Part shown: positions 1,156 through 27,918 of the stretch, one piece after another
Numbering within the stretch: the first letter of the stretch is position 1
Layout of the letters: the number at the start of each line of letters is the position of its first letter
From: a virus
Lineage: Duplodnaviria > Caudoviricetes
IMG/VR virus record: IMGVR_UViG_3300036958_000333
Coordinates: 208,849-272,848 of that record
Strand: one strand, 5' to 3'
DNA length: 64,000 bases
Position numbers and translations under genes: made by a program
The notes under the pieces: model-generated
What the model saw: the letters and a program-made list of their open reading frames with translations, nothing else
Told to the model about the DNA's origin: nothing
The model's database searches: none

Positions 1156-1731
1156 ATGAAAATAAAAAATATTAATGAAATTGTACCTACAATTTCTTTA
1201 TTAAATGAAGAAGAAAAACAAAACGCAAAAAAAGAATGGTATACTATTTTACATGAAATGTTTGATTGGCAAAGAATGTTTGGAGATTATTGTTTTAAAA
1301 AAAATAATATAAAAGACAATGACGGAAATATATTAGAATTTAATACAATATTTAAAGAATTTCAAGAAAAAAAATTCGGACCAAATGATCTCCCAAACGA
1401 ATGGATAAAAAAATTTCACGAATGTATGGTAAAAGAATTAGAAGAAATAGAAGAATTATTACCATGGAAACATTGGTCTAAAGAATCTATTGGAGAAAAA
1501 ACATATAAAGATTTAACAAAAGACGAAAGACTAGGAATGTTAAAAATAGAACTTGTTGATATATGGCATTTTTTAATGAGCGCTATGATGTGTGTTGGAA
1601 TGGGACCAAAAGAATTACATGAATTGTATATTTCTAAAAATAAAGTTAATTTTGAAAGACAACAAAAAGAATATAATACAGCTAATAAAAACGAAGATGA
1701 TAATATAAATATAACAAAAAAAATTAACTAA
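1156..1731 (+). CDS. dimeric all-alpha dUTPase/dCTPase (T4 gp56-like)
   Basis: ELEE..E..PWKHW, IELVDIWHF and LY.SKNKVNFERQ..Y motifs; AGGAG Shine-Dalgarno upstream. Confidence 0.85.
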   Translation: MKIKNINEIVPTISLLNEEEKQNAKKEWYTILHEMFDWQRMFGDYCFKKNNIKDNDGNILEFNTIFKEFQEKKFGPNDLPNEWIKKFHECMVKELEEIEELLPWKHWSKESIGEKTYKDLTKDERLGMLKIELVDIWHFLMSAMMCVGMGPKELHELYISKNKVNFERQQKEYNTANKNEDDNINITKKIN

Positions 1732-2525
1732 ATTTTATAAAATTTATTATTTGAATATTCCATAAGTTGAAGTATTTTATTTGTTTTTTTCATATTAATC
1801 TCGTCTCTCCATATTCGTAATCTTGTATATTTTTTCAACAAATCTGAATAGATTTTAATAAAATCTTTATTAATAAAATGATCTATTATATGTACTGAAA
1901 ATTCATTACCAGAATTATAAATCATTTCTATTCCATCTAGAAATTCATGCATATTAAACATCTTTCCAGTAGGATGACAAGAAACTATAAATTTTATTTT
2001 TTTATTTATAATTTTTTTTAAATTATTAATATTATATATTGAAGTAAACAATAATATATTTTTAGAATATTCTAAAAGTATATCAATTATTTTATTAATA
2101 TTTTTATGCAACAAAGGTTCGCCTCCAGCTACTTCTATTATTAAATTAGAATTAGGAAAATTAACTTTAAAATCATTAAATAATTTTAAAGTTAATTCTA
2201 CTGGAATACTTTCTTTCGATAAATTGTTTGGATATTTTACACCACAATATACACAATCATTAAGACAAGTAGTAACTGGATGAAAACTCATTCTTATTAT
2301 AGAATTATTATATTCACTTGTCTTTTCTGATCTAGTAGTATATGATAAATCACAATCTATCTTGCATTCTTTATAATATTTACAACTAAAATCATTGCAT
2401 AATTTAAAATTATTTTTTATTGAATATATCTCTATATTTTTATGAAAAAACTTATGGCATCTAAATACTTTCCAATCATCTGTTTTTTCAATAACAAACC
2501 AATTATTTCCTGCAGAACAATACAT
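1728..2525 (-). CDS. radical SAM protein with N-terminal SPASM/twitch-like Cys domain
   Basis: CLNDCVYC (CxxxCxxC), AGGEPLLH; N-terminal CSAG..WFVI..V..CH...C..C...CD; paralog of 19865..20701. Confidence 0.85.
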   Translation of the reverse strand: MYCSAGNNWFVIEKTDDWKVFRCHKFFHKNIEIYSIKNNFKLCNDFSCKYYKECKIDCDLSYTTRSEKTSEYNNSIIRMSFHPVTTCLNDCVYCGVKYPNNLSKESIPVELTLKLFNDFKVNFPNSNLIIEVAGGEPLLHKNINKIIDILLEYSKNILLFTSIYNINNLKKIINKKIKFIVSCHPTGKMFNMHEFLDGIEMIYNSGNEFSVHIIDHFINKDFIKIYSDLLKKYTRLRIWRDEINMKKTNKILQLMEYSNNKFYKI

Positions 2526-2528
2526 ATA

Positions 2529-3662
2529 TTAAATTTTTTCAAATTTTTTTTCAATTTCAACATTATTTGATGATTTATATAAACTATAAATTGTAAAGTT
2601 TTTACATCTATGTCCAATACAGTGTTTTTCATAATAAATATTAAAATTATATTTTTTTTGAAAAACTTGTTGTTTAATGAATTTTTTAATTTCATCAATA
2701 TGATCATTATTATCTATATGAATATTAAATGTTTCTAAATCTTCTTGTTGAATTATTTGTAAATAATCATGTTTTTTTATTATATCCTTTAATATTATTA
2801 ATTTATCAGTAAAATCTATTAATTCTCCTTTGTGGTTATATAAACATGTAATCATACATGGTTCAAAATTAAATTTTCTATAATAACTTCCACATTCACA
2901 TAAATGAAATTCGTTTTCTAAAGGATAAATATTATCTGGATTTCCATCTTTTTCATTCCACCAAGTATTATAAAAATTAAATAAATCTATTATTTTTCTA
3001 TCTTCTGTACAATAAAACAGATTTTCCATCCAATGCATGTTTCCATATGGACAAGTATAAAAAGCAGTACCTTCTTTCCAACTCCTCATTTGATTAACAT
3101 ATGGTATACCTAATTCTTTTAATATATTAAAATCAAAATATTTATTATCTGTTTCAGTTGTAGATATTACAGACGCTGTATTTTTAATCAAATCTATAAA
3201 ATTATCATATCTTAAAAGTTCATGTAATGTCATAGGAGTACATATATAACAAACATTGTTTAAATAATAAAAATCTTTTAAATTATTATATGGATTAATA
3301 TAAAAAGCTTTTCCCTCGGATTGTATTTCTTTGTCATTAATATATGAATTGATATTATATATTCTTAAATATAACTTGTTTTGTACATTATAAAATCTAT
3401 GCATATAATTCCATATCAAATCACATATAATTCTAAAATTTGGACCCCATTTATACATAACATGAGAACATTTAGTTGATCCATTAGATTTTAATTTTAC
3501 ATAATTACAAAAGTTATTTTTTAATTTTTTATATATTTTTTCTAGATCATATAAGTGTTTATATGAAATTTTATTTTCTTGAATAAAATATCCTAAATTT
3601 TTTATACTATCTATTGGATTATTTATATATTCTTCATATTTTTTTATATATTCGTTATACAT
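2529..3662 (-). CDS. CapK/phenylacetate-CoA ligase (PaaK)-like adenylate-forming protein, divergent
   Basis: KSNGST (degenerate TSGST loop), FYTCPYGNMH, CECG and LQIIQ C-terminal motifs typical of the PaaK/CapK family. Confidence 0.55.
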   Translation of the reverse strand: MYNEYIKKYEEYINNPIDSIKNLGYFIQENKISYKHLYDLEKIYKKLKNNFCNYVKLKSNGSTKCSHVMYKWGPNFRIICDLIWNYMHRFYNVQNKLYLRIYNINSYINDKEIQSEGKAFYINPYNNLKDFYYLNNVCYICTPMTLHELLRYDNFIDLIKNTASVISTTETDNKYFDFNILKELGIPYVNQMRSWKEGTAFYTCPYGNMHWMENLFYCTEDRKIIDLFNFYNTWWNEKDGNPDNIYPLENEFHLCECGSYYRKFNFEPCMITCLYNHKGELIDFTDKLIILKDIIKKHDYLQIIQQEDLETFNIHIDNNDHIDEIKKFIKQQVFQKKYNFNIYYEKHCIGHRCKNFTIYSLYKSSNNVEIEKKFEKI

Positions 3663-3680: not shown

Positions 3681-4481
3681 TTATGTTTTTGTGTTATAAA
3701 ATAAATCATAATATTTTTCTTTATATTTATATAAATCTAAACTAGTAACATGTAAAAAATCAAATTTTTTAAAATATTTGATATTATCAGTATTAAATGT
3801 TTTATTAGTACATACATCTAAAATAATTCCAGTATTTATATTTAATCTAGTATAAGTAAGATTAAATATATTATTATATAATAAATTATATAAATTAGTT
3901 ATCCTATATTTTAATAATAAATAAGCCATTAATATTTCATCATTTCCTTGATATATAGGAAAATTATTAATACATTTATAATATTTTTTTGCTTCATTTA
4001 ATAAATTATAAATAGTTTGATTATTTTTAATTTCTTTTTTTAATATTTTTATAAAAAAATCAAAATATTTTTTTGAAAATAAAATTAAAAAAAATTTAAT
4101 ATAACTATAATAATCTTTTTTAAAATTATTTATATCAAAAACGGAAAACATGAATTTATCTTTTATATTGTAATTTCTATTTTTATTTAAATTATTTTTT
4201 AGTTTTAATATTTTATTTTCAAAATCTAAACGATTTATATTTAATATTGTATCAATATCTAATATAAAATAATAATCATATTTATTTAATAAATTATTGT
4301 TTATTGAAAATATAGTATAAAATCTTTCTATATAAGTATCATTTATGTTTTCAATTTTATTTTCTAATAATATACAATCATATCCATTGTTTTTACAATG
4401 AAATTCTTGCATTTTATATGCATCATAATAACTATTATATAATTTATTTTTACATATTGAAAATATACACAATACAGACAT
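3681..4481 (-). CDS. putative GT-A glycosyltransferase (GT34-like)
   Basis: C..NGYD, YDY..ILDID (DxD), NDE..M and late FLH motifs; paralog of 7942..8751. Confidence 0.5.
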   Translation of the reverse strand: MSVLCIFSICKNKLYNSYYDAYKMQEFHCKNNGYDCILLENKIENINDTYIERFYTIFSINNNLLNKYDYYFILDIDTILNINRLDFENKILKLKNNLNKNRNYNIKDKFMFSVFDINNFKKDYYSYIKFFLILFSKKYFDFFIKILKKEIKNNQTIYNLLNEAKKYYKCINNFPIYQGNDEILMAYLLLKYRITNLYNLLYNNIFNLTYTRLNINTGIILDVCTNKTFNTDNIKYFKKFDFLHVTSLDLYKYKEKYYDLFYNTKT

Positions 4482-4915: not shown

Positions 4916-5239
4916 TTAGTCTTTTTTTATAATATTTATAAAATTTTCATCATTTAATAATTCACATGGATTGTCTGGCAATTTTCTATAATATAAATAA
5001 TATACATATTCATATATTTTTATACATGTATCAGGATCTGCTAAATGTAATAATTTATGATGATTTGAACATAACATTACTATATTTATAGAACTATCTT
5101 TTCCTCCAAGACATATTGGATTAACATGATGATATTCTTTTTTTTCTTGAGAATCACAACAAACACACTTTCCTTTTTGTCTTTGTTTAATAAACTCTTT
5201 TAATTGTTTGTTTAATTTATTTCTTTTCTTTATTTCCAT
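4916..5239 (-). CDS. HNH endonuclease
   Basis: CVCC, EYHHVNP..LGG....N...LC.NHH..LH; start set at the ATG of MEIKK (ORF track starts at 5251). Confidence 0.85.
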   Translation of the reverse strand: MEIKKRNKLNKQLKEFIKQRQKGKCVCCDSQEKKEYHHVNPICLGGKDSSINIVMLCSNHHKLLHLADPDTCIKIYEYVYYLYYRKLPDNPCELLNDENFINIIKKD

Positions 5240-5933
5240 AATATTTGTCAAATATACTTATTATTTTATTAGAAATATCATCATGATTATCTAGTATTTT
5301 ATCATTTGGCATAAGTTCTAATACTTTTTTTATTTTATATGGAGGGATTTCTTTATACCATACTCTTCTTTTTAATACATAAATATAAAAATATAAATAA
5401 GAATTTGCACCTCTAATATATTTATCTATTTTTATTGGAAGATCAAAGTCTTTAATCATTTTAACGGTTCTTTTTTCACAATCTCTTTCGCATTCTAATG
5501 TTCTTTTAACATATTCTTTTATTTTATTTTTTGAAAACTCTTTTCCCGTTATCCAATCATCCATCAGGGAACTAACATCTACTTTTTTTCCTTTTACATT
5601 ATCATATAATATATTCCAATACTTTGATTTTTCAACCCATTGTCTATAATGACAAAATTCATGAACAAAAATAGGAAACCATTCGTCTATATCATTACCA
5701 ATTGCACATATAAATTCGGGATAATTATTATAAGAAAAATAACCTATTGATTTCTCATTATCTTTATAATGAATAAACTTTTTATCTAAAAAACGTATTT
5801 TAACATTATTATCAGACATTTCCTTTATAGCATATTTTATGAATTTATCTATTTTATTATTATTTTTATATATTGATTTATATACAAAAAGATTATTATT
5901 AGATTCATTTATATATTCACTAAATTTCTTCAT
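5217..5933 (-). CDS. putative zinc metallopeptidase-like protein with capsid-targeting-like N-terminus
   Basis: VHEFCHYRQ (HEXXH) with downstream E..CE; N-terminus MKKFSEYINE. Confidence 0.6.
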   Translation of the reverse strand: MKKFSEYINESNNNLFVYKSIYKNNNKIDKFIKYAIKEMSDNNVKIRFLDKKFIHYKDNEKSIGYFSYNNYPEFICAIGNDIDEWFPIFVHEFCHYRQWVEKSKYWNILYDNVKGKKVDVSSLMDDWITGKEFSKNKIKEYVKRTLECERDCEKRTVKMIKDFDLPIKIDKYIRGANSYLYFYIYVLKRRVWYKEIPPYKIKKVLELMPNDKILDNHDDISNKIISIFDKYYGNKEKK

Positions 5934-5972
5934 ATATATTTTTTATTATATATTAAAAAATATACAATTAAT

Positions 5973-6953
5973 TTATTTTAATTTATTTACTTGTTTTTCA
6001 ATCCAAGGATATGTCTTTTTTATACCATCTTCTAGATTATATTTAGCTTTCCATCCTAACGAATATATCTTTTCATTGCTAAAATTTCTAGATTCTACAC
6101 CAACAGGTCCATCAATGTAATTTATATTAATCTTCTTTTTAGCCACTTTTGCTACAACATTAACTAAATCATTAACAGATGAATATTCTGGAGATCCTAT
6201 ATTAACAGGGACAGAAATATCAGAATCTACTAATAAAATAATACCGTCAATTAAATCATCAATATAAGTATAACTACGAACAGCTTGTCCTAAGCTGTTT
6301 GGATTACTCCATATATCTATAGTTCCTCCATCTTCTACTTCTGCAACTTTCCTACATATTGCTGCTGGAGCTTTTTCTTTTTTATTATTCCAAGCTCCAT
6401 ATGGACCATAGGTATTCTGAAATCTAGCTATTCTAGGATGAAAACCATACTTTCTAGCATAATTTAATATTAAACGTTCAGCATATAATTTTTCCCATCC
6501 ATATTCATTTTCAGGAATTGCCGGATAAGAATCTTCTTCCTTTAATTCAGGTTCACCTATTTTCATATCTCTATAAACACAAACAAATGAAGAAAAGAAA
6601 TATTTTGGAATACCCAGTTTAGATATAGAATTAATTATATTAACATTAATTAATGTATTATCATAAACAATTTCTTGTTCTTTATTAAAAATCCAACCCA
6701 TTCCCCCCATGTTTGCTGCAAAATTAAAACATATATCACATGGTTTTCCATTTATCAATAATGAATCATAACAATTTTCTGAAAATCTTAAATCTAGTAT
6801 TTTAAACTCATCAACTGGTATATTTCTAAATTCATGATATTTAATATCTACTCCTCTCACAAAGTATCCTAATTCTTTTAATTTATAACAAATATGTCCT
6901 CCAATAAATCCTCCTGCTCCACAAACAACTGCTTTTTTCATTAATTCCTCCAT
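5973..6953 (-). CDS. NAD-dependent nucleotide-sugar epimerase, GDP-mannose 3,5-epimerase-like
   Basis: GAGGFIG, FAANMGGMG, YGWEK (YxxxK), EKAPAAICRKV and RSYTYIDD motifs. Confidence 0.9.
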   Translation of the reverse strand: MEELMKKAVVCGAGGFIGGHICYKLKELGYFVRGVDIKYHEFRNIPVDEFKILDLRFSENCYDSLLINGKPCDICFNFAANMGGMGWIFNKEQEIVYDNTLINVNIINSISKLGIPKYFFSSFVCVYRDMKIGEPELKEEDSYPAIPENEYGWEKLYAERLILNYARKYGFHPRIARFQNTYGPYGAWNNKKEKAPAAICRKVAEVEDGGTIDIWSNPNSLGQAVRSYTYIDDLIDGIILLVDSDISVPVNIGSPEYSSVNDLVNVVAKVAKKKININYIDGPVGVESRNFSNEKIYSLGWKAKYNLEDGIKKTYPWIEKQVNKLK

Positions 6954-7941: not shown

Positions 7942-8751
7942 TTACATTTTTTTAAAAAAGTTTTTTCTTTTATTTTTTCTTTTATTTAATAATTTATTGA
8001 AATCATATGTATAATATTTTTCTTTATTTTTACTAATTTCTAAAAATGCAATATGAATAATATCTGTTACAGGAGGTATTTTATTAAAATCTTCAGTAAA
8101 AGTTTTATCTGAAATATTTAAAAAACATGATTTAAAAATATTATTAGTATCAAAACTAAATATGTTTAACGTTTTATATTTTATTAAATGATATGCCATT
8201 AATTTTTCATCTTCACAAGACCATTTTGCTATTCTATCAATAAATTCATAATATTTGTTTGCTCTATCTAAGGAGATCATAATATCTGATTTGTTTTTCA
8301 ATTCATTTTTTAATTGTTTTATAAAAAATTTAAAATATTTCTGCGAAAAACATATATGACAAAATCTAATATAACTTCCTTCATTATTTTTTAAATCAAT
8401 TATACTAAAATAAGATAATACAAATTTATCTTTTATATTATAGTTTTTATTTTCATTTAAATAATTTTTTAATTTTAATACTTTTTTTTTATATTCAGTA
8501 CAATTAATATTTAATATAATATCAATATCTAAAATAACATAATAATCATATTTATCTAGTAAATTATCATTTATAGAAAGTAAAGTACAAAACCTTTCAA
8601 TCCAAACATTATTTATACCTTTAATATTGTTTTCTAACAATATACAGTCATATCCTTTTTGTTTACATATATTTTCTTGTATTTTATATGCGCTGTAATA
8701 ATCATTATAAAATTCATTCTTGCATATTGAAAATATACATAAAATTGACAT
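7942..8751 (-). CDS. putative GT-A glycosyltransferase (GT34-like), paralog of 3681..4481
   Basis: MSILCIFSICKN, GYDCILLE, YDYYVILDID, EDEKLMAY; start taken from the paralog alignment. Confidence 0.5.
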   Translation of the reverse strand: MSILCIFSICKNEFYNDYYSAYKIQENICKQKGYDCILLENNIKGINNVWIERFCTLLSINDNLLDKYDYYVILDIDIILNINCTEYKKKVLKLKNYLNENKNYNIKDKFVLSYFSIIDLKNNEGSYIRFCHICFSQKYFKFFIKQLKNELKNKSDIMISLDRANKYYEFIDRIAKWSCEDEKLMAYHLIKYKTLNIFSFDTNNIFKSCFLNISDKTFTEDFNKIPPVTDIIHIAFLEISKNKEKYYTYDFNKLLNKRKNKRKNFFKKM

Positions 8752-8765
8752 ATATATATATATGT
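8748..8765. repeat. 18-nt perfect palindrome containing two divergent ATG start codons
   Basis: acatatatatatatatgt; minus-strand ATG at 8751 and plus-strand ATG at 8762. Confidence 0.75.
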
Positions 8766-9799
8766 ATAATTTTTTAAACTTAAATTTTAATGAATATAAA
8801 GACAAAATTGCCTTGGTTTATAGTTCTTTTTATATTTTTCCAGAAAATGTTGTATTAAATGAAGTTAATAATTTAGATAGACAAATAGAAATATGTAGAA
8901 ATATAGAGTACAAAGAGAATTGGAAAGGTAGAGGAATAGTTATATCTTGTGGAAAAGATCATTACTATTTATTATATATTCAATTAAATATATTAAGAGA
9001 TTTAAATATTAATTTACCTATAGAAATATGGAATTATCCAGATGAAATAGATAACAATATAAGAAACAAGTTCTTGTCATATTTTAATTCGTTAGATATA
9101 GAATTTAGAGAATGTTTAGATACAAAATTTATTTGTCATAGATTTAGAGGATGGATGATTAAAAATTATGCAATGTTTCATAGCAAATTTGAAGAAGTTA
9201 TACAACTAGATGTTGATAGTTTTCCTCTTGTTAATCCAGAAAACCTATTCGAATTAGAAGAATATAAAAAATATAAATGCATATTTTGGAATGATAGTAA
9301 ACTATATAGTTCTAATAACAATATAATTATATGGTTAAATTTTAATAAAAAAAGCCAAATATGGAAATTTTCAAATGTTGAATATAATGATAATTTTCCA
9401 ACATTAGAAGTCGGACAAGTCTACATAAATAAAAAATATCATTATTTACCAATGTTATTGTCTTTGTACATAATAGAAAGATCCGACTTCTATTTTCATA
9501 TATTTTACGGTGATAAAGATGTTTTTAATATCATATTTCATAGAATCAATATTCCATTCGAATACTTAAATATATATCTTATTAATAATAATATTGGATT
9601 TTTAATATGCAAAAAATCATTAAATGAAAAATATTTTATTCATATGTCATTTGGGAATGCAAAGCTTAATAATATATTAAATATTAAATACAATAATAAT
9701 TCTTTTTTATCACAAGAATTAAATATTATTTATAATTACTTTAATGAATTTGATAATTTTATAAAACAAAAAAGTAATGTTTTTTTTAATAAATTATAA
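8762..9799 (+). CDS. GT71 (MNN2-like) alpha-mannosyltransferase, copy 1
   Basis: GRGIVI, LPIEIW, KNYAM..SKFEEVIQLDVDS, FW.D, E.GQ, YGDKD; start taken from paralog 61280..62326. Confidence 0.85.
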   Translation: MYNFLNLNFNEYKDKIALVYSSFYIFPENVVLNEVNNLDRQIEICRNIEYKENWKGRGIVISCGKDHYYLLYIQLNILRDLNINLPIEIWNYPDEIDNNIRNKFLSYFNSLDIEFRECLDTKFICHRFRGWMIKNYAMFHSKFEEVIQLDVDSFPLVNPENLFELEEYKKYKCIFWNDSKLYSSNNNIIIWLNFNKKSQIWKFSNVEYNDNFPTLEVGQVYINKKYHYLPMLLSLYIIERSDFYFHIFYGDKDVFNIIFHRINIPFEYLNIYLINNNIGFLICKKSLNEKYFIHMSFGNAKLNNILNIKYNNNSFLSQELNIIYNYFNEFDNFIKQKSNVFFNKL

Positions 9800-9973: not shown

Positions 9974-10138
9974 ATGAATGAATTAAATAAATTTAATTTA
10001 CTAATAGATAATTTTGATATCGAATTAAAGGAATATAAAATAGAAGAAAAAATATTAATTATTGAAATTTTATTTTTATTATTAAATCAGACAGAATTTA
10101 CGGAATTTTTATTTAAAGAAGAAAACAATATTGCGTAA
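9974..10138 (+). CDS. small hypothetical protein (54 aa, not in ORF track)
   Basis: ATG 9974 to TAA 10138 (MNELNKFNLL...EENNIA); stop overlaps the amidoligase start. Confidence 0.45.
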   Translation: MNELNKFNLLIDNFDIELKEYKIEEKILIIEILFLLLNQTEFTEFLFKEENNIA

Positions 10139-10931
10139 AACTGGAATAGAAATTGAATTTGCAGATGTTAATATTTTTAATAAAAAAATATGCAAAGAGA
10201 TATTTGTTAATTTAAAACTTCCATGTAATGAAAAAAACAACGATTTATATAATCAGTGGATAGTTAAAGATGATCCAACATGTGGTTTTGAGATTAATAC
10301 ACCAATAATATATTCTAATAATGATTTTTATAATTTAAAGATTGTATTAAAAGAAATAAAAAAAACATATAAAGAAGAAGAAATAATAAATAAAGATTGT
10401 GGATTACATGTGCATATCGATATATCAAATTTTGTTAATGTAAAACAGTTTTTATATTTATTACAAATAACTAAAATACTTGAAAATACAATTATATTTA
10501 AAATTACAAACAAAACAAGAATAAGAAATAAATATTGTAAAAAAATATGTTATTATAGCAAAGTTAAACAATGTTTAAATAACGATCTTAAAAAATTTTC
10601 TAAAAATATAAACAAATTACCAAAAAATTCCGGATTAAGTATAAAATCATATAGCACTCTTGGTACAGCAGAATTTAGATATTATCAATCAACATTAAAT
10701 TATTATGAAATAATAAATTGGATAAATTTTTTACAAAAAATAATTGATTTTATATTTGATAAAAATAATATAAAATGGTTAGATAATAACTATTATAAAA
10801 TAATGAATAAAACAAAAAAAATTAGCCATAAAAAAATATTTAAAATTCTTAAATTAAATAGAGAAACTATTAATTTTATACAAAAAAAGGTTAAAGAAAA
10901 TGTACGGAATGTTTTATGTAAAAAAAAATAA
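10131..10931 (+). CDS. putative amidoligase (COOH-NH2 ligase, Amidoligase_2-like)
   Basis: GIEIEF, W.VK.D, FEINTP, CGLHVH and TAEFR motifs. Confidence 0.85.
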   Translation: MRKTGIEIEFADVNIFNKKICKEIFVNLKLPCNEKNNDLYNQWIVKDDPTCGFEINTPIIYSNNDFYNLKIVLKEIKKTYKEEEIINKDCGLHVHIDISNFVNVKQFLYLLQITKILENTIIFKITNKTRIRNKYCKKICYYSKVKQCLNNDLKKFSKNINKLPKNSGLSIKSYSTLGTAEFRYYQSTLNYYEIINWINFLQKIIDFIFDKNNIKWLDNNYYKIMNKTKKISHKKIFKILKLNRETINFIQKKVKENVRNVLCKKK

Positions 10932-11574: not shown

Positions 11575-14500
11575 TTATATATTTTTATTTAAAACAATTG
11601 TTGCAATAAGTTTTCTTTTAGTATTATCTGTTCCATGATTGTTTTTTATTATCGTACTATTGGGATTAACCATTTTTACTTGTAAATATTCCCTATCATT
11701 CCCAGAAGTTCCTTTTTGATTAAAATTTTTAGGTTCCCAATATCCTCCTGTATATAAATTCATAGTAATATTATTAATAGATGGAGTAAAAGCAGGTTCA
11801 TTGGTATTCATTCCTATAAATACTTTTATTTTATTTGTAATTCCTTCTATAAATCCAAGATAAGCCTGTGGAATATTTCTTTCTTCATGTCTTAAATAAT
11901 TATTCCATCCAGACCATGGCCAAGATAATATATTTGATAATTCAGAGAACTCCATTCCTTGTTCCATAATATCTTTAGAATCAACTATAAACCACAAATC
12001 CATATCACTATTATACTTTTTCCATGTTAAACCATCGTCGAAAGAAAATAATAATTTTATTTGAGTATCTTGCCATTGCATATATGTACTTGGATCATAA
12101 ATTTCTATTGGCATTTTTAAAGATTCTGATCCAACTAATTTATTATTATATGTTGCTGTATTTATTTCTATTTCAAATCCAGCTATAGAAGCATCATATT
12201 CACTAACCGTACTTAAATCAAATTTAACATCAAAATAAGAATGTGGAACAGTAGTGTCTGTCATATCTGAAATGTAAATAAGTTTTAAATCTTCATCATC
12301 TTCTGTTGCATCATATATTTTCAATATATTATCTTTTTTTAATATTAACTCATCACCTTTAATAAATTCAAAACCTTCATCGTATAATATGAAATATTGA
12401 TAATATTCTATATTAGTATTTTCTTTTCTAAATATTATTTTTCCAAAACAATAAGCTTGTTTATCTTCTAATACGTCGATTATTTTAATTAAATTAGAAT
12501 TTCCAGGACTATCATATAAAGAATTAATATTTTTTAATTCATTTAAAACCCAATTTGGAACATTAATATAAGTATTTGGAATATATGCTGTTTCACCAGT
12601 AATATCAGAAATAGAAATATAATTTTTCATAATATAAACATCTATATTCTCAGAAGAAGAAGATGGAAAAACGTTTGATTCAGGGCTACTATCTAATGTA
12701 ATTATAGTCTCGGTATTAGATAATATTTTATAATTTCCTTCTAATTCTGAATATTTTGACGTTATTGTCAATATTTTTCCTGCAAATTCATTAATAACAA
12801 ATCCAGATCCTTGAAATTGATCTGTAGCTATTATTTTACCAATTATTTTTTTACATATAGAATTATCATAAACTTCTGTATTATATGTTAACATTCTAGT
12901 TCTATCATCTCTTATTCTTGATGCTGTTTCAGTATCCACATATATTTCTTGAGTATGAACCCATGATGGAATCCTAGAAGAATATTCTCCTCCAATTTTA
13001 TCTCCAATATATCTAACTAAATGATTAGATATATTGGTTTTATAATAACTATTATTATAATGATCTTTTGTATGATAATTAATATCTACTAATTCTATAA
13101 GTATATCAGTTGGTATAATCATATCAGTTATAAAAACATTATTATTTATTTCATTTTTAGTTTCATCTTCATCAGAAAATTTATCAAATGATCCGCTTAT
13201 TGTTATTGTATCTAAATTATTACTTTCAATAACATAAACTCCAGTAAAAGAACTAGAACTTGAACGCGGTATATATAAAAGTTTTCCAATAAGTTCATCT
13301 TCTTCATAATTTAGAATCAACGTTGATTTAAATTCAGTTGAGCTTATTATTTTTCCATCACCAATGTTTTCTAAATTATCTTTACATAAATAAAAATAAA
13401 TATTTTCATCATCTTTATCTTTTTCTAATGTATTAATATATAATTTTCCATTATCATAATTAAATATTCCTTTAAATATAAAATTATCATAATATACATT
13501 TTCAGGTTCAGTATGTAATGAAGAAAAATTGCTATATATTAATAACTTAAAAGTATCTATGTTTTCAAATTCAATATATCCTAGTCCAGCAGGGACATTG
13601 TTATCTAAATCATTATATCTTATTCTAGGCTTTACATAAAAAGAACAATAATATATTGGACACATATACTTGCCTAATAATAACAGATTTAAAGTAATTT
13701 TTGCTATTCCCCAAATCGAATAATAAGAATCTAATTCTAAATTATAATTTGTAACCTCTCCTATTTTTACTGGAGGATTTTCTTTTACTATATTTTTATG
13801 TTTTAAACTTATATATTTATCTTTATCAGATCCATCTATTTCTTCCATACGATAAATATCTGATTTTTCATTTTGTATAAATACAGAAGGAGAATTCCAT
13901 TTTAATAAGTTATCAATAACTGTTTTTCCATGAGTTCTCCCTCCAAAATATATTCCTCTATTCTCAGAATCAGTTACTAATGCTCCCCATGTGTTTTTAT
14001 ATGGTTTTATACCAACGTCAGTGCTATAATTTTTCCAATTTACTCCGGTTAATTCTAAAAAATGAGTATTTTCAATTTTAGAAATATAAGGAATATAATT
14101 TGTAGAAAAAGATTGATGTAATGTATTTATAATTTGTATGTGTAATGTTCCTGTACTGGAATCAAACCAAGATTTTCCACTTCTTATAGTTGGATCAGGA
14201 TTATACTGACCGCCAGATAATTCAATAAAAGCAAGATTAAAAGCAAAATACGAACTATTTGGAATAAAATATTCTACATATGAATTTATACCACTATTAT
14301 AAACTCCAACATAAACAACATGATCTCCACTTCCAGGTCCTCCTGGAATTGTTATAGTTAGTTTAGATATTATAGTCCATCTTCTTTCACCTATAGGAGA
14401 TCCATTAGAAGGCCAATATATTCCGTCTATTTCGGTTTCAATTCTACTATCTCCACTAATTGTAATTCCATCATCATGTAAATAAACATGATGTATCCAA

Positions 14501-17500
14501 TCTGGATGTGATTCTGTTATTTTATCACTTCCGCTATACAAATCAAAATCGTCAAAATTAGTCGAATCATATATGCTAAATTCATCAAACCTGTCATTTT
14601 CTATTGATATTGTTTTTTCCTGAGCTAAAGAATTTAATTCGTTATTTGAACATCTTAAACCATTAGGAACAACAAATAAAGAGCTTAATTTTAAATTAGA
14701 AATAATAGTATAATCATTATCTTTTTTAACAAAATCTATATTTCTATTTAATGTTGATAAATTAACTTTTCTTCTTGTATAATTTAATTTCCCACACCAT
14801 ATATCATCTAAAGATTTTGACGTAATATAATTTCTTGGATTAATATCATCATTATTTCCACATGCTATCCATATTTCATTATCAAGATCTCGTTTCTTTA
14901 TATATTCTATATAATTTTTTCCATCTGTATGATTATCAACAATAGGTGGAATTTCTATATTTCTATTTATAATCGCTATTCCATTTCCATTTCTTGATTT
15001 AGGAATATCATCTGTCAAATTTTTAATATAAGCCCATCCAACATTAACATCTTGGGCTCCTATTATTAATAGAGTATTATCATAATAATTAGTATAATCA
15101 GAAGTAGTAAATCCTCCAAAATATATCATAGCTATGTTTTCTACATATGGATTCTGAGAGTGTCCTTTAGGAGCTGGTTTTATTCCACCATAATATTTAA
15201 TTTTAGCTCCTCTCCAAGATGTTATTCCTTCTATAGGAGAGCCATTGCTTGCTTTTAATGGATCTAATTTAGACCATCTTCCTAAAAAACCAAATGGTTT
15301 TTCTGGTAAATTACTATCTTGCTCATAATTTAATTGAAATCTATAAGAATTTGATCTATTAAATACCATAAAATTTGGAAACCTTGATATTCCAGCTAAC
15401 GAATCTCTTGTATAACCTGTTATAACTAAAGATCCAGATATACAAGGAACAGGAGCATATGATGATCCATTTTTAGCTAATGGCATAAATCTAAAAATAA
15501 TTTTATTATTTAAAGAATCATTAATATCAGATATAAATATGGTTCTAGCATCTTTATAAGATTGATTGTCTCCAATGTTCATATCTCCGGATATTGAAAC
15601 AGAATCTGGAGGCCAAGATACACCACCATCTAAATCATCTGGATATCCATTAGACCTAGAAGGATTATAAGATCCGCCACCATAAATTACTATTTGGTCA
15701 TGTTCTGGTCTACCTGGATAAGAAATAACAATTTGATCACCTTCTAAATATTGATCTGAATCAGTTCTAGAACCTCCCGTTAATCCTTTAACTTGAACAC
15801 ATATAGAATTGTCTAAATTATCATGACAAACAGATATATCTTGTATAATTCCATGAGATCCTGAAGTAAGATTGTATATTTCAAAATTAATTATACTATC
15901 TCTATAACCCTCTATTGTTTTTACTTTATTAGTTAAATTTTCTTTATCACTATAATATGGTAAATTAGGATTATCACATTTATCATGTTTTTCTATATAT
16001 GGATCAATTGAATCAAAAAATTCATAAAATGTTTCTTTATATTCCTTTTCAAAATAAGAAGCTTTTTTATGAAAGTAAGGATATTTAATATACTTAGGAG
16101 ATATTCCAAATTTTGATGGTTTTATCCATAAATGATAATATTTTCCAGTAAGATTAATTGGATCTTCATATTCAGAAAAATCTATTCCTCTATCTCCATC
16201 AGGAGTAGGTGTTGGTACTGCTTCGCTGAAATGATATTGGTTTCCAAGAATTCCTTTATATGCAACATTTTCAATTATATCTGAAATATGAAACACTCTT
16301 GGCGGAGGATTTTCAACAGATACAACTTCCCATTGGTTTGTATTTAAATTATATCTCCACATAGAAGTGTCTATAGAACCATTCATTCCATATCCACCCT
16401 GTATGTATACATAATTTTTATAATAAAAACTAGTAAAACCAGCTCTTGGACCAGGACCTGATTTAGATGGTTCTTCTGGAGAACTCCAAATAGAATACTT
16501 ACATGCCATATCTTGTTTAGAATAATATAATCCTCTTAAACTTGAATCAGAAGAATCATAAAACGCAGAAAATTCAACTTGTCCTAACTCATCTAGTTTA
16601 AAATCAAAATCGGTAATATCAATATAATTCAAGTATTCTAAAGGATCAGAAAAATTTCTTATTCTATATTCATATGATAATATAGAATTGTCTTCATGTT
16701 CATTTTCCCAAGAACCACACCTGTTATGAATATGGCATGGACACTCTAATCTTTCAGAATCTTTATTAATATAAAATACATGAATATTATCTGAATTAGA
16801 ACATTTATTTGAATATATTTTATGATCAAAATTTCTTTCATATTTTTTTTCTACTAATATTTTTAAATTATTTCCATATTTTGATGTTTTTTGAACGTAC
16901 CATTCAGATGAAACAGATGGATGTTTAAATGATAATAATATTTCATTAGACTTTTTGTCTTTATTTAATGAAAAATTAGATGCTGCAACAACTGGAGTTC
17001 CTCTTAAATGTATAGATTTGTTTTGTAAATTAAATTTTTTATCGTCAGTATACAACAATCCCGGTTCAATATAATCTTCCCATATTGCGACAGAAAAATC
17101 ATTTTTATTATTACATATAAAATTATCTATATAATTTGAAAATAAGAATTGGTGATTATATTCAATATTTTCATTTAAATCAATCATTTTTGATGATTTT
17201 ATATCTTCAGATGCTTCAAATACATAATCTGTATTTGGATCGGATGATGATTTTTTTATTAATAATGCATTTATAGAAGAATCTTTTGTATTTCTATAAA
17301 TAATCCATATACTAAAATTCTTACTACTCCAAACATATTTATATTCATAAGAGAAAATTTCAGTAGACAATTGAGGAGTTAATAATATTTTACATCCTTC
17401 TGAATATAATCCATTAATTATTTTTGGAGATATGTTTTCTGGCCATAATTGAAGATTTTTAGTTGCATTTAAATTTACCCAAAACGCAACATTATGTGGA

Positions 17501-18963
17501 TATCCATTAGAATCGTTTTGAGAAGCAGTTATTCCAACGACATACGAATAATCAAATTTATTACTAATTTCATAGTTTAATGGGATATCTTTAAAATATA
17601 TAATTTCTCTTATAAACAAATCGATATCAGAATATGAATTTCCTTCAGAATCTAAATTTTTTCTCGGAAAAAATATTGGAGTTCCAAAATTATGACACCA
17701 AGATATAAAATAAGGTCTATTTGTTCCTTGGTCTAAATAAGCAAGACCAAACATATCATTTCCATCTAAATTATTTGAATCATCCATTAAATTAGAAGTA
17801 TCTTTATATTTTGTTATAATATGAACGGCAGAAAATTGATTTGCTTTTACTGGAAATTCTAATTGTCCAAACTTATAATTTACATTATATTCTAACCACT
17901 CGTCTCTTCCTTGCATTAAATAATTACATACTATAGTATTGTCTTCTCGTATACTTAAAACATATGATATCCCAGATTCCTTTGAGCTGAAAACTTTAAT
18001 ATTAGAAGCAGACTTATTTGTTCTTGAAGTATTTCTAAGTATTGTAAAATCTTCTTGATTTTTTTGTCTAACTATAGACGCTTCTTTTGAATTTATTATT
18101 ATATTACTTATATAAAAAACTCCATTATATGAAGTTTGTAATGGTTTATTTATATAAATTATTGGAGGTAAATTATTATCATTTTGTGTTAATATATAAG
18201 AAATTTTATATTGAACATTGTCTTTATCTTCTCCTACTAATCCTATAATGCCAGGATTTAATGTCGTAGAAAAAGAACCTGTTATTTGAGTAGAAGATAT
18301 AGTTATTATTACATTATCTAAACTATAAAAAGATGATTTTATATAATAAGAATTTCCTTCAGAAAAATTTATATTAACATTTGATATTTCTTCTCCAGAT
18401 ATTCTTTCTTTGATTTGTATTATTCTTGAAAAATTATAATCAGAATCGTGCTCTAATACATATTCTGATCCTTTGTTTAAAGTAAAAGAATATGTATATA
18501 AAAACATTCCTTGATTTAATTTAGAATCTATTGAAGACGAGGAAGATGTTGATATTTCTGTCCAAACATTGTCTTTCCATAAATATATTTTCTTTTCAGA
18601 AGAAACCAATCTCGTATCATTTTCTTTATTTATTCCAGATTTTAATGTAGGTAGATCAGAATAGTTCTGTACAGCATCTCTCCAATTTGATTTATATGAA
18701 AAAACTTCTCGTCTAGTAACATATGGATTATCTCCAGATGGTAAATATGAATTAGATAAAGCGTAATATATATTTGAATTTGGAAGTAATAATTTTTGTA
18801 TATCAGTAGAAAATTTTTCTATTGTTATTTCTCCATTTTTTAGATGTATATTTTCTACTGCACTATCTTGTATTACTCTTTGATCAACACATCCTGTGTC
18901 TAGATTTATATTTTTGACTTCTCCTTCTTGTATGAATAATCCTTTTACTTTTTCTTGAATCAT
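11575..18963 (-). CDS. giant virion fibre/receptor-binding protein with Kelch-type propeller
   Basis: 2462 aa; N-terminal fibre-like motifs (PSGDNPYVT, WRDAV..YSDLP); Kelch blades (PGPRAGF..YIQGG..WRYNLNTNQW); Asp-box SFDDGLTW; located in the tail module. Confidence 0.7.
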   Translation of the reverse strand: MIQEKVKGLFIQEGEVKNINLDTGCVDQRVIQDSAVENIHLKNGEITIEKFSTDIQKLLLPNSNIYYALSNSYLPSGDNPYVTRREVFSYKSNWRDAVQNYSDLPTLKSGINKENDTRLVSSEKKIYLWKDNVWTEISTSSSSSIDSKLNQGMFLYTYSFTLNKGSEYVLEHDSDYNFSRIIQIKERISGEEISNVNINFSEGNSYYIKSSFYSLDNVIITISSTQITGSFSTTLNPGIIGLVGEDKDNVQYKISYILTQNDNNLPPIIYINKPLQTSYNGVFYISNIIINSKEASIVRQKNQEDFTILRNTSRTNKSASNIKVFSSKESGISYVLSIREDNTIVCNYLMQGRDEWLEYNVNYKFGQLEFPVKANQFSAVHIITKYKDTSNLMDDSNNLDGNDMFGLAYLDQGTNRPYFISWCHNFGTPIFFPRKNLDSEGNSYSDIDLFIREIIYFKDIPLNYEISNKFDYSYVVGITASQNDSNGYPHNVAFWVNLNATKNLQLWPENISPKIINGLYSEGCKILLTPQLSTEIFSYEYKYVWSSKNFSIWIIYRNTKDSSINALLIKKSSSDPNTDYVFEASEDIKSSKMIDLNENIEYNHQFLFSNYIDNFICNNKNDFSVAIWEDYIEPGLLYTDDKKFNLQNKSIHLRGTPVVAASNFSLNKDKKSNEILLSFKHPSVSSEWYVQKTSKYGNNLKILVEKKYERNFDHKIYSNKCSNSDNIHVFYINKDSERLECPCHIHNRCGSWENEHEDNSILSYEYRIRNFSDPLEYLNYIDITDFDFKLDELGQVEFSAFYDSSDSSLRGLYYSKQDMACKYSIWSSPEEPSKSGPGPRAGFTSFYYKNYVYIQGGYGMNGSIDTSMWRYNLNTNQWEVVSVENPPPRVFHISDIIENVAYKGILGNQYHFSEAVPTPTPDGDRGIDFSEYEDPINLTGKYYHLWIKPSKFGISPKYIKYPYFHKKASYFEKEYKETFYEFFDSIDPYIEKHDKCDNPNLPYYSDKENLTNKVKTIEGYRDSIINFEIYNLTSGSHGIIQDISVCHDNLDNSICVQVKGLTGGSRTDSDQYLEGDQIVISYPGRPEHDQIVIYGGGSYNPSRSNGYPDDLDGGVSWPPDSVSISGDMNIGDNQSYKDARTIFISDINDSLNNKIIFRFMPLAKNGSSYAPVPCISGSLVITGYTRDSLAGISRFPNFMVFNRSNSYRFQLNYEQDSNLPEKPFGFLGRWSKLDPLKASNGSPIEGITSWRGAKIKYYGGIKPAPKGHSQNPYVENIAMIYFGGFTTSDYTNYYDNTLLIIGAQDVNVGWAYIKNLTDDIPKSRNGNGIAIINRNIEIPPIVDNHTDGKNYIEYIKKRDLDNEIWIACGNNDDINPRNYITSKSLDDIWCGKLNYTRRKVNLSTLNRNIDFVKKDNDYTIISNLKLSSLFVVPNGLRCSNNELNSLAQEKTISIENDRFDEFSIYDSTNFDDFDLYSGSDKITESHPDWIHHVYLHDDGITISGDSRIETEIDGIYWPSNGSPIGERRWTIISKLTITIPGGPGSGDHVVYVGVYNSGINSYVEYFIPNSSYFAFNLAFIELSGGQYNPDPTIRSGKSWFDSSTGTLHIQIINTLHQSFSTNYIPYISKIENTHFLELTGVNWKNYSTDVGIKPYKNTWGALVTDSENRGIYFGGRTHGKTVIDNLLKWNSPSVFIQNEKSDIYRMEEIDGSDKDKYISLKHKNIVKENPPVKIGEVTNYNLELDSYYSIWGIAKITLNLLLLGKYMCPIYYCSFYVKPRIRYNDLDNNVPAGLGYIEFENIDTFKLLIYSNFSSLHTEPENVYYDNFIFKGIFNYDNGKLYINTLEKDKDDENIYFYLCKDNLENIGDGKIISSTEFKSTLILNYEEDELIGKLLYIPRSSSSSFTGVYVIESNNLDTITISGSFDKFSDEDETKNEINNNVFITDMIIPTDILIELVDINYHTKDHYNNSYYKTNISNHLVRYIGDKIGGEYSSRIPSWVHTQEIYVDTETASRIRDDRTRMLTYNTEVYDNSICKKIIGKIIATDQFQGSGFVINEFAGKILTITSKYSELEGNYKILSNTETIITLDSSPESNVFPSSSSENIDVYIMKNYISISDITGETAYIPNTYINVPNWVLNELKNINSLYDSPGNSNLIKIIDVLEDKQAYCFGKIIFRKENTNIEYYQYFILYDEGFEFIKGDELILKKDNILKIYDATEDDEDLKLIYISDMTDTTVPHSYFDVKFDLSTVSEYDASIAGFEIEINTATYNNKLVGSESLKMPIEIYDPSTYMQWQDTQIKLLFSFDDGLTWKKYNSDMDLWFIVDSKDIMEQGMEFSELSNILSWPWSGWNNYLRHEERNIPQAYLGFIEGITNKIKVFIGMNTNEPAFTPSINNITMNLYTGGYWEPKNFNQKGTSGNDREYLQVKMVNPNSTIIKNNHGTDNTKRKLIATIVLNKNI

Positions 18964-19821
18964 TTATATTTCCTTATCATAAACAATAATATTATCAATA
19001 AAATTAAAGTTCTTATTATAAGTATATGTATTTATCCCATATTTTTTTAACCAATATGCTCCTGCACTTATAATACTAGATTCTATAATTTGTTGAGGAT
19101 ACATATAAACCCCTTCTTTTATATATACAACTCCCGATCTTTCTTCTCTTATATAATTTTCAGTATTTAATAAAAAAACATTTCTTATACCAAAATAATA
19201 TATTAAATTAAAAATAGATAATATCAAACACCTATGATCTTCTAAAAATATATTATAAGAATTTATATTTATAGTATTTCTTTTTGATTTAGACGGCGGA
19301 GTATTATATGAATATTTCGTTCCTTTATAAAATTTAATAAAATCATGATTCGTTCTATAAGAAAATAAACCTATTGGAATAGATGTATAATCTTTTGGTA
19401 AAAAATTAATAATATATCTATATGGATTATTGCAAATATATAAATCAATAAGATCATTATGATATTTTAAAGAATCATTAATTCCTATAATTAAACATTT
19501 ATTATTTTTAATTTCTTTTAAAAAATTATTATCTATCTTAGAATTTATTATTATAGCTTTAGAATATCTAGAAAAATCATTTATATTAATATTAGAAGAT
19601 AATAAATCAGAATTTTTAAATATATTTGAATTAAGAAAAACCAATTCTTCTTCTGAAAAATATTCATCTATATCAAAGTGTTTTTTATTTGTACAAAAAT
19701 TTCTAATATAAAAAAAACCACTATAATCTAAAGATAAATAGTCATTAACATTATTCTTAACTATATCATTATCTTTAAAATTTAACTTAAAAGATTTGTA
19801 ATATTTTTCTATTTCTATCAT
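18964..19821 (-). CDS. hypothetical protein, weakly MAF/DUF115 (sugar-transferase fold)-like
   Basis: IIGIND..D..I..NP and IYYFGIRNVFLL resemble MAF/DUF115 motifs; stop abuts the fibre ATG. Confidence 0.35.
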   Translation of the reverse strand: MIEIEKYYKSFKLNFKDNDIVKNNVNDYLSLDYSGFFYIRNFCTNKKHFDIDEYFSEEELVFLNSNIFKNSDLLSSNININDFSRYSKAIIINSKIDNNFLKEIKNNKCLIIGINDSLKYHNDLIDLYICNNPYRYIINFLPKDYTSIPIGLFSYRTNHDFIKFYKGTKYSYNTPPSKSKRNTININSYNIFLEDHRCLILSIFNLIYYFGIRNVFLLNTENYIREERSGVVYIKEGVYMYPQQIIESSIISAGAYWLKKYGINTYTYNKNFNFIDNIIVYDKEI

Positions 19822-19864: not shown

Positions 19865-20701
19865 ATGTTTTGTACTGGTGGAAATAAATGGTTTGTAATA
19901 AATGGAAATCTTGGAAATGTTTATTCTTGCCATATAAGATTTTATAAAAACGAAAAACAATTTAAATTGTCTGAAGATATTAAACTAAGAGAAGACGAAT
20001 GTAAAGAAACCAAATGTGATAATAAATGTGATTATTGTCATATAATAAAAAGTAATAAACGAGATGAAATTAAATCACAAAATCAAGTACATATATTGTT
20101 TTATACAAATGATATGTGCATGAATGAATGTGAATATTGTAATATTCCTTCTAAAAAAAGTAATAATCTAGATATAAATGATATGTCAATATTTTATAAA
20201 AATTTATTAAAAATATATCCTAATTATAATTATTCTATATTATTTTGTGGTGGAGAACCAACTTTTCATCCATATATTGAAAAATGTATTTTATATACAC
20301 ACGAAATATTGGGCGAAAGATTAAATTATGTAGAATTATATTCTAATGGAATATTAAATCATAAAATAGAAAAAATATTAAAATCATGTAAAAAAAAACA
20401 ATTAGATAAAATTATTTTTAGAATATCAGCTCATCCAACCGGAAAAATGTTTAATTTATATAATTGGACTAAAACTATATTATTAATTAAAAAATATAAT
20501 GCAAAACTATCAGTAAAGATAGTAAATCATGAATGTAACAAAATGTTTATTCCAATAATAAAAAATATAACTGAAAAATTAAATATAGAATTTCAAACTG
20601 TTCAAGATAATCACATGTATTTTCCTAGATATAATATGATTAGTAATATACTTTGTGATAAAAAAAACATTTTAAAAGAAAACTTTTTTATTAACTTGTA
20701 G
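19865..20701 (+). CDS. radical SAM protein with N-terminal SPASM/twitch-like Cys domain
   Basis: CMNECEYC, CGGEPTFH, YSNG; N-terminal CTGG..WFVI..GNVYSCH...C...C...CD; SAHPTGKMFN shared with 1728..2525. Confidence 0.85.
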   Translation: MFCTGGNKWFVINGNLGNVYSCHIRFYKNEKQFKLSEDIKLREDECKETKCDNKCDYCHIIKSNKRDEIKSQNQVHILFYTNDMCMNECEYCNIPSKKSNNLDINDMSIFYKNLLKIYPNYNYSILFCGGEPTFHPYIEKCILYTHEILGERLNYVELYSNGILNHKIEKILKSCKKKQLDKIIFRISAHPTGKMFNLYNWTKTILLIKKYNAKLSVKIVNHECNKMFIPIIKNITEKLNIEFQTVQDNHMYFPRYNMISNILCDKKNILKENFFINL

Positions 20702-24135: not shown

Positions 24136-24141
24136 ATTTTA

Positions 24142-27291: not shown

Positions 27292-27918
27292 TTAAGGAAC
27301 ATAAAATTTAATTGAAAAAAAAGACCATATTGGCGAATTAAAATCAAAAACAATATTACCGTTTTTTCTAGAAATATTTGAATATTCTGGTTTTATTAAA
27401 GTTTCGTCAGAAACTAAAGTTTCTCCAGAAACTTTATTTATTAAATAAAAATTTGATAAAATTATTTGATCTTGTGAATAATTATTTTTCTTAAAAAATA
27501 ACTTATCTGACAATTCAATAATATTAATATCTAAACTATATGTTTTAATTTCGTTTAATTCTAACATGTTATATATTAAATTACTATCATAAGATTCTTT
27601 TGGAGAAGAAGATATTTGTATTGTTGCAGAACTTTTTTTCAAATTTGTAAACTTAAGAATCCATTTTCCTGGAATTATATCTACAGGATCATATAATAAA
27701 TTCTTAGATAATGTATAAATAGGATAAATAATAATATTTTCTGGAGTAAATGATGTTTCTACAAAAATAGAACTTGTCTTTTTTAATAATTTAAATTCTA
27801 TAAATCCTGTTTCTTCTTTTTTAAATGAAGAACATTTCCAATAAAATCCAGAATATATCTTTTCTATTGTAAAATTAATAACAAAACCATATCTATGTAT
27901 TTGAACATTATAATCCAT
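27292..27918 (-). CDS. hypothetical protein
   Basis: 208-aa ORF overlapping the stop of the upstream GT gene. Confidence 0.6.
   Translation of the reverse strand: MDYNVQIHRYGFVINFTIEKIYSGFYWKCSSFKKEETGFIEFKLLKKTSSIFVETSFTPENIIIYPIYTLSKNLLYDPVDIIPGKWILKFTNLKKSSATIQISSSPKESYDSNLIYNMLELNEIKTYSLDINIIELSDKLFFKKNNYSQDQIILSNFYLINKVSGETLVSDETLIKPEYSNISRKNGNIVFDFNSPIWSFFSIKFYVP

Follow-up and report, generated by a model that had tools for sequence, protein, structure and literature searches.

SPASM and twitch domains have been described as C-terminal extensions (PMC9012708). In BtrN, SpeY, BlsE and MoaA, a partial-barrel radical S-adenosylmethionine (SAM) core is combined with one auxiliary [4Fe-4S] domain based on a beta-hairpin with Cys on either side, and the substrates are sugars, cyclitols or nucleotides. 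The reverse, twitch-first order is already catalogued as NCBIfam NF033640 (N_Twi_rSAM, "twitch domain-containing radical SAM protein"), while NCBIfam NF038073 (STM4011) has the normal order, with a core at positions 10-190 followed by a twitch-like domain at 200-270. Our literature search found no study of NF038073 or NF033640, with no description of function for either, and no study of an N-terminal twitch or SPASM domain or of circular permutation involving SPASM. Here we describe two genes, P0001 and P0002, in a 64,000-nucleotide stretch of viral DNA (the window; positions 208,849 to 272,848 of IMG/VR record IMGVR_UViG_3300036958_000333). They belong to a small, uncatalogued and apparently phage-borne family of twitch-first radical SAM enzymes. 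Most likely, judging from sequence comparisons, the twitch domain of this family moved by circular permutation from the C to the N terminus within the STM4011-like lineage. The two genes and their parts are as follows.

1728..2525 (including the stop codon), minus strand: P0001, a twitch-first radical SAM enzyme of 265 amino acids (open reading frame (ORF) and translation).
2316..2525, minus strand: N-terminal twitch-like domain of P0001, residues 1-70 (invariant Cys and Gly, profile matches).
2244..2267, minus strand: CxxxCxxC of P0001 (C87, C91, C94), the SAM-binding cluster site (sequence, invariant columns).
1731..2306, minus strand: radical SAM core of P0001, residues 74-265 (hhalign of the family core, fold matches).
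19865..20701, plus strand: P0002, a twitch-first paralogue of 278 amino acids (ORF and translation).
19865..20077, plus strand: N-terminal twitch-like domain of P0002, residues 1-71 (NF038073 profile, match to P0042).
20117..20140, plus strand: CxxxCxxC of P0002 (C85, C89, C92) (sequence, invariant columns).

Both ORFs are intact. P0001 begins with MYCSAGNNWFVI...VFRCH and has Cys at positions 3, 23, 43, 48, 54 and 58 ahead of CxxxCxxC (87-94), GGE at 134-136, the signature S-C-H-P-T-G-K at 182-188, and a single, non-conserved Cys (183) after CxxxCxxC. The layout of P0002 is the same, with CxxxCxxC at 85-92; in both proteins the first Cys lies near the start of a Cys-rich segment of ~70 residues, which is followed by CxxxCxxC and then by GGE. 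Inspection of the two sequences revealed no C-terminal Cys cluster. The Cys-rich domain occupies residues 1-70, ahead of CxxxCxxC, contrary to the definition of SPASM and twitch domains as C-terminal.

A preliminary description of this DNA, made from the sequence alone, had reported a Cys-rich N terminus before CxxxCxxC and no C-terminal cluster, together with a paralogue of the same reversed order at 19865..20701. Both observations hold, and the two proteins share 32% identity across an alignment of 246 residues (E 5e-28). It had also judged a frameshift or assembly artefact unlikely. An identical P0001 is encoded on nine contigs from several samples and sources. Since the same order recurs across these contigs and in ten further clusters, with invariant motif columns, a frameshift, an assembly artefact and a chance pattern are now all excluded. 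P0002 is 41% identical to P0004, a protein from another contig, and the two are sisters with support of 98/93. Because P0002 is sister to P0004 and not to P0001, P0001 and P0002 are old paralogues.

To define the extent of the family, we searched 1.84 billion representatives exhaustively with P0002 in phmmer, which returned 39 proteins at E ≤ 0.001. Eight of these align from residue 1-2 and are 266-307 amino acids long, and a ninth, P0013, has a 37-residue extension. Including P0001 and P0002, at least 12 sequence clusters have the twitch-first order. We detected them nowhere but on phage-like metagenomic contigs, many of which carry phage genes. A tblastn search of 50,697 deposited phage genomes gave no match for P0001, P0002, P0040, P0042 or P0097. 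A word-based homologue search returned only P0001 itself when P0001 was the query, and one relative when P0097 was the query. Paired genes occur elsewhere in the family: in one locus (L012), the stop codon of P0008 (6331-7170) overlaps the start codon of its immediate neighbour P0009 (7167-8027), and 1.1 kb from P0007 lies a second gene, encoding 276 amino acids with a faint match to Fer4_12 (PF13353), with an aldo-keto reductase gene between the two. Ancestrally, each phage may have carried two paralogues.

We examined conservation in an alignment of ten members (A1). The invariant positions are C3, G6, C23, C48, C54, C87, C91, C94, G134-G135-E136 and H184-P185, the H-P pair sitting in an S-x-H-P-T-G-K signature, and C58 is present in most members. 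In the AlphaFold2 (AF2) model, C3, G6 and C23 flank a predicted beta-hairpin (9-14/18-21) that is followed by a helix, hairpin and helix together falling within residues 9-28. The first half of SPASM/twitch domains is built in this way, with a Cys-flanked beta-hairpin and then a helix.

Profile comparisons link this N-terminal segment to domains that normally follow the core. We compared an alignment of the N-terminal domain alone (A4, 11 sequences) with an alignment of proteins of normal order (A3; P0042, P0043, P0045 and P0057). Using hhalign, A4 aligned to C-terminal positions 208-269 of the 282 in A3 (probability 96.5, E 8e-10). When a hidden Markov model (HMM) of A4 was run on the proteins collected here, all matches outside the family fell after the core. 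The top match was to residues 245-309 of P0043 (26.7 bits), with further post-core matches in P0068, P0042 and P0045. Among all Protein Data Bank (PDB) sequences, the best match of the N-terminal profile was to the SPASM domain of CteB (5WGG/5WHY), at a marginal E of 0.0053; it spans residues 347-408, which hold the C-x-x-G...hairpin...C-H segment. Residues 2-67 of P0002 match positions 203-267 of the 278-position NF038073 profile (E 2.3e-4), and residues 5-61 of P0040 match positions 201-252 of the same profile. Residues 6-57 of P0024 match the SPASM parts of PapB, SCIFF maturase and ScfB-related models below threshold. From the normal-order side, residues 172-255 of P0045 score 25.7 bits against TIGR04085, just under the 27-bit cut-off. 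By these sequence criteria, SPASM/twitch domains and the N-terminal domain are homologues.

The number of conserved Cys speaks to the type of domain. Since four Cys (C3, C23, C48 and C54) are invariant, the motif fits one auxiliary [4Fe-4S] cluster and thus a twitch rather than a SPASM domain, with these four Cys as the predicted ligands. The preliminary description had called the N terminus SPASM/twitch-like; the A3 and CteB matches add homology to that assignment, and a two-cluster SPASM domain does not fit the motif.

Several results weigh against this assignment. PF13186 matched only three of ten members, with a best E of 8e-4, below its cut-off; all matches to curated SPASM models were likewise below their cut-offs; and no Pfam or NCBIfam model gave an above-threshold assignment of the N-terminal domain. 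When the domain was folded alone (A5, 16 rows), the predicted local distance difference test (pLDDT) score was 49.7 and the model was unusable. As four Cys can also hold zinc, these results could mean that the domain binds zinc or is purely structural, a degenerate twitch remnant without a second Fe-S cluster. We regard that as highly improbable, because all four positions equivalent to twitch ligands are conserved in distant members and the domain is homologous to domains that bind clusters. In addition, poor folding of the isolated, cluster-free domain would be expected if folding depends on the cluster.

The remainder of each protein is a radical SAM core. PF04055 (cut-off 29.5 bits) matches P0001 at 25.6 bits (E 1.6e-5), P0002 at 29.7 bits, and all ten aligned members, with a best E of 7e-9. 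C87, C91, C94 and G134-G135-E136 are invariant among these ten, and the barrel is shown to carry CxxxCxxC and GGE, the standard site of [4Fe-4S] cluster binding and SAM cleavage. The AF2 model of full-length P0001 (pLDDT 80.8, predicted template-modelling score 0.80) has strands alternating with helices over residues 76-240. It matches radical SAM structures with a Foldseek probability of 1.0 and VIA Z of 10-12, spanning residues ~70-251. The PDB structures matched by the P0001 core are anSME, ThiH, MoaA, viperin, SkfB, SpeY, BlsE and NifB. These matches cover the core only, because Foldseek and VIA align sequentially. The best matches in BFVD are radical SAM proteins of 370-420 amino acids from uncultured phages, with 290-360 aligned columns and TMq up to 0.64. 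As these matches are longer than the core, they suggest that relatives colinear with the twitch-first proteins may be common in phages.

The closest relatives have the two domains in the normal order. Both halves of the permuted family find their best-matching curated model in NF038073: the cores of members match NF038073 positions 10-186 (best E 5.7e-15) and the N-terminal domains match positions 201-270, the reverse of their order in the permuted proteins. These scores lie far below the 200-bit cut-off of the model (P0002, 17.3 bits for the whole protein and 20.6 bits when the N-terminal domain is taken by itself; best member, 55.3 bits). With hhalign, the family core matched STM4011-like proteins of normal order with probability 99.5 and E 2.4e-22. 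At ~280 amino acids, the normal-order relatives are similar in size to the permuted proteins, and the S-x-H-P signature is common to both. Normal-order proteins end with C-x-G-G ... hairpin ... C ... C-x3-C-D, the same pattern with which the permuted proteins open.

Pairwise BLAST revealed the rearrangement within single pairs of proteins. Residues 108-273 of permuted P0024 match residues 36-200 of normal-order P0042 (32% identity, E 3e-23), and residues 12-58 of P0024 match residues 235-296 of P0042 (E 6e-4). Similarly, residues 3-27 of P0002 match residues 235-258 of P0042, which follow the P0042 core (48% identity, E 6e-5). Two non-colinear matches of this kind are the signature of circular permutation, and they bear out the permuted order proposed in the preliminary description, since it is reversed relative to close relatives of normal order. 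The tandem copies P0008 and P0009 are what a route of duplication followed by truncation would need.

We asked how often the rearrangement occurred using a maximum-likelihood tree of 39 cores (198-column alignment). Nine permuted proteins, including P0001 and P0002, form one clade with support of 100/96. A second group (99/95) joins the permuted proteins P0024, P0040 and L005p to P0042 and P0045, which have the normal order; P0042 is therefore a closer relative of P0024 and P0040 than the clade of P0001 and P0002 is. Permutation may have occurred once or more often, as an approximately unbiased (AU) test did not reject a single clade of all 12 permuted proteins (p 0.088).

The relationship to NF033640 bears on whether the twitch-first order arose once. 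NF033640 proteins resemble P0001 and P0002 in carrying a Cys-bearing domain of SPASM/twitch type ahead of CxxxCxxC, also occur on a contig with phage-like genes (L016), and are uncharacterised. The member P0093 scores 229.8 bits against the cut-off of 170 and has Cys at 14, 32, 65 and 68 before CxxxCxxC at 120, and a fragment related to the NF033640 N-terminal domain has a Pfam SPASM match. Thus, the architecture as such has been described before, as NF033640 already catalogues radical SAM proteins with four conserved Cys ahead of CxxxCxxC. The preliminary description had proposed looking for the same architecture elsewhere; NF033640 has the same order, but P0001 and P0002 are not members, with 13.5 bits for P0001 against the cut-off of 170 (best family member, 21.3 bits) and no match for P0002 at E ≤ 10.

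These scores leave a reading in which P0001 and P0002 are short, highly diverged members of the NF033640 lineage, so that the twitch-first order arose once, with no separate permutation. The shared domain order is consistent with this, as are weak matches to NF033640 that are colinear over the core (P0001, E 0.029; P0024, E 1.2e-4; P0040, E 2.3e-4) and the BFVD matches to possible N_Twi proteins, which extend beyond the core. We nonetheless find this reading unlikely. Besides the low full-length scores, the N-terminal profile failed to match true N_Twi proteins, whose own N-terminal domain takes up NF033640 profile positions 1-87 (hhalign probability 0.4 against an N_Twi profile of three sequences; HMM scores of -0.7 bits for P0093 and -0.5 bits for P0096). 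The core is closer to normal-order relatives than to true N_Twi proteins, for which hhalign gave E 7.7e-10. The proteins also differ in size, at ~400 amino acids for NF033640 and 265-278 for P0001 and P0002, and the last two Cys of the N-terminal domain form CxxC in NF033640 but Cx5C in the permuted family. In the tree, true N_Twi proteins lie elsewhere, and a clade joining them with the permuted proteins was disfavoured by the AU test (p 0.013). Weighing against a separate origin, the test included three true N_Twi sequences, the groups were named after the tree had been seen, and deep support was weak. On balance, a separate origin of the twitch-first order in the family of P0001 and P0002 is probable from these sequence data. 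A search with NF033640 of the viral record that holds L005 gave no match.

One NF033640-related locus has an unusual arrangement. On a phage-like contig (L014, 2775-4991), a 249-amino-acid radical SAM gene is followed by P0096, a 114-amino-acid SPASM-only protein, and then by P0097, a 379-amino-acid radical SAM protein. P0096 matches NF033640 positions 2-70 and P0097 matches from position 84, and the two genes overlap by 4 nt (ATGA). Together they resemble an N_Twi-type enzyme that has been split in nature or interrupted by a frameshift. A gene for IS605 OrfB/TnpB is found a short distance downstream.

To consider possible roles, we surveyed the genes near P0001, P0002 and their relatives. The relevant features of the window are as follows.

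1156-1731, plus strand: dUTPase_2/MazG-like gene, which converges on P0001; the stop codons overlap by 4 nt.
2529..3662, minus strand: 377-amino-acid protein, a likely operon partner of P0001; co-oriented, it ends 4 nt upstream of P0001.
5973..6953, minus strand: NAD-dependent sugar epimerase/dehydratase in the minus-strand block of P0001 (PF01370, E 5e-35; PF16363, E 6e-17).
8720..9799, plus strand: mannosyltransferase-like glycosyltransferase (PF11051, E 1e-32).
10131-10931, plus strand: Amidoligase_2 (PF12224), on the margin of the sugar-tailoring block and next to the mannosyltransferase-like gene.
20691-21896, minus strand: 401-amino-acid protein of the structural block; its gene and P0002 share 11 nt at their 3′ ends.

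Sugar genes recur around the family. A sulfotransferase gene lies beside a relative in L007; a nucleotide-sugar transferase, MIOX and a weak sulfotransferase match accompany a relative in L008; the aldo-keto reductase gene is next to P0007; and a family 2 glycosyltransferase (GT2) is encoded in L012. On a T4-like contig (L005), the neighbours include methyltransferases and glycosyltransferase-like genes, the latter judged by eye. The normal-order relatives are embedded most clearly in such clusters. P0042 follows a GT2 gene, two GT4 genes, a radical SAM/SPASM gene, an epimerase/dehydratase and a sugar nucleotidyltransferase (NTP_transferase), and P0045 is flanked by an epimerase gene and a GT1 gene, with a B12-radical SAM gene upstream. 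Genes matching PF01370/PF16363 are close upstream of both, with the nucleotidyltransferase gene intervening in the case of P0042. BLAST of the neighbours revealed that only the 377-amino-acid protein upstream of P0001 has a relative near another family member (30% over 136 amino acids, E 4e-12), which lies 2.7 kb from P0006 in L010. No usable Pfam match (E ≤ 1) or PHROG family was found for the genes at 2529-3662, 3681-4481 and 18964-19821. Directly upstream of the permuted gene in L005, a Cys-rich ORF of 122 amino acids (5619-5987, plus strand) has no family match.

Because of the sugar genes around P0001 and its relatives, especially normal-order P0042 and P0045, we lean, though only slightly, toward a role in radical chemistry on a nucleotide-sugar or glycan. 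The case for this role comes from gene neighbourhood, which counts against it, as do the position of P0002 among tail-fibre-like genes and the occurrence of several members near dUTPase-like, Pol III alpha, NDK, Fapy glycosylase and 5′-3′ exonuclease genes.

The last of these settings raises a different possibility, that the substrates are nucleotides or DNA (base or nucleotide modification), or that the enzyme is a glycyl-radical activase, with no part for sugars. The dUTPase_2-like gene is convergent with P0001, split Pol III alpha genes are not far away, and NDK, Fapy DNA glycosylase, 5′-3′ exonuclease and capping/ligase-like genes are found near relatives. Models of NrdG2 (best E 1.8e-11), viperin-like proteins and QueE also match the core below threshold. 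Those matches are far below the cut-offs and cover only the generic SAM-binding half, and NrdG, QueE and viperin have no twitch domain. The nearest relatives by both halves are in clusters of glycosyltransferase, epimerase and nucleotidyltransferase genes, and no glycyl-radical enzyme was among the families scanned in the neighbours examined, which make up a small part of the window. We thus consider a nucleotide, DNA or activase role quite unlikely.

The overlap of P0002 with the convergent 401-amino-acid gene suggests another candidate substrate. The last ~125 residues of the encoded protein (~20694-21068) are very rich in Cys and Pro, with stretches like C-P-P-C and E-P-C-P. It could be that P0002, perhaps along with the rest of the family, is a protein or peptide maturase that installs thioether or carbon-carbon cross-links in this tail, in the manner of SPASM sactipeptide and ranthipeptide maturases, and the best PDB match of the N-terminal domain is a sactisynthase, CteB, while PapB and SCIFF maturase models match the N-terminal domain of a member. 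We judge this very unlikely, as P0001 and P0002 have no leader-recognition (RRE) domain and are only 265-278 amino acids long, the four conserved auxiliary Cys point to one cluster, and P0001 and the normal-order relatives are in sugar gene clusters. The 401-amino-acid protein has no Pfam or PHROG family, and BLAST found no homologue adjoining other family members, which further weakens the idea.

Returning to chemistry on sugars, a mechanism can be sketched. The barrel [4Fe-4S] cluster at CxxxCxxC would cleave SAM to give a 5′-deoxyadenosyl radical, which, to go by gene context, may abstract hydrogen from a sugar in a nucleotide-sugar or glycan unit. The N-terminal Cys (C3 and C23 flanking the hairpin, C48 and C54) would bind a second [4Fe-4S] cluster. 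The twitch domain of normal-order enzymes folds back on the open side of the partial barrel; the N-terminal domain could thus occupy the same place, ahead of strand 1, as the C-terminal one does in those enzymes. The auxiliary cluster might then accept the electron or keep the substrate in place, a role that it has in the twitch dehydrogenases BtrN and SpeY, and phage-encoded glycan tailoring would draw on the product. In agreement with the preliminary description, which had called the reaction undescribed, no reaction is known for P0001 or P0002.

Taken as a whole, we think it likely, with some reservation, that P0001 and P0002 are functional, anciently diverged paralogues with a permuted, one-cluster twitch domain, separate from NF033640, that carry out radical chemistry on sugars. 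A more elaborate scenario strikes us as doubtful. Here, the twitch domain moved to the front repeatedly, once in NF033640 and once or twice in the STM4011-like lineage, and one paralogue may have been recruited to the tail-fibre module, where it would modify a virion glycan or the Cys/Pro-rich tail of the 401-amino-acid protein by chemistry that has yet to be reported for a radical SAM enzyme.

The window itself has a GC content of ~16-30% and encodes baseplate-wedge and other tail proteins, very large fibre-like ORFs and two tRNAs. Its DNA recurs in metagenome assemblies, where it adjoins the split Pol III alpha genes, and the longest recorded contig bearing P0001 is ~273 kb. These features fit an uncultured, AT-rich jumbo myophage as the source. 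The phage-encoded tRNAs are as follows.

57864-57937, minus strand: tRNA Met(CAT).
59586-59658, minus strand: tRNA Gly(TCC).

In the tail and baseplate region, giant ORFs occupy 11575-18963 (2462 amino acids), 33779-38809 (1676 amino acids) and 46791-54464 (2557 amino acids), all on the minus strand. They adjoin PKD-domain proteins (21910-25341) and a 1057-amino-acid protein with a glycosyltransferase domain (27908-31081). A protein of 111 amino acids (4916-5251, minus strand) has a C-x-C-C ... H-H ... C pattern and weak matches to DUF968 and DUF5099, and is possibly an HNH-type nuclease; 35 nt of its gene are shared with the beginning of the following gene.

That normal-order and permuted proteins are still 32% identical provides a clean natural experiment on whether the role of an auxiliary cluster depends on chain connectivity and on how radical SAM architectures evolve. 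As the proteins are small (~270 amino acids), the family should be tractable for expression, spectroscopy and crystallography. If they do act in sugar tailoring, radical chemistry would be added to the glycan-modification islands of large uncultured phages, which are poorly understood. Practical value is at present limited, since no substrate is known and the twitch-first layout is already catalogued.

Compared with characterised enzymes, the core of the P0001 model matches SpeY (7WZX), BlsE (7VOB) and MoaA (1TV7) at 13-17% identity. P0001 and P0002 differ from CteB, a peptide maturase of 453 amino acids that has an RRE domain and ends in a SPASM domain with two clusters. In BtrN, SpeY, BlsE and MoaA the twitch domain is C-terminal, whereas in P0001 and P0002 it is N-terminal. 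The twitch-first layout itself was already known from NF033640; what is new is a separate family that has it.

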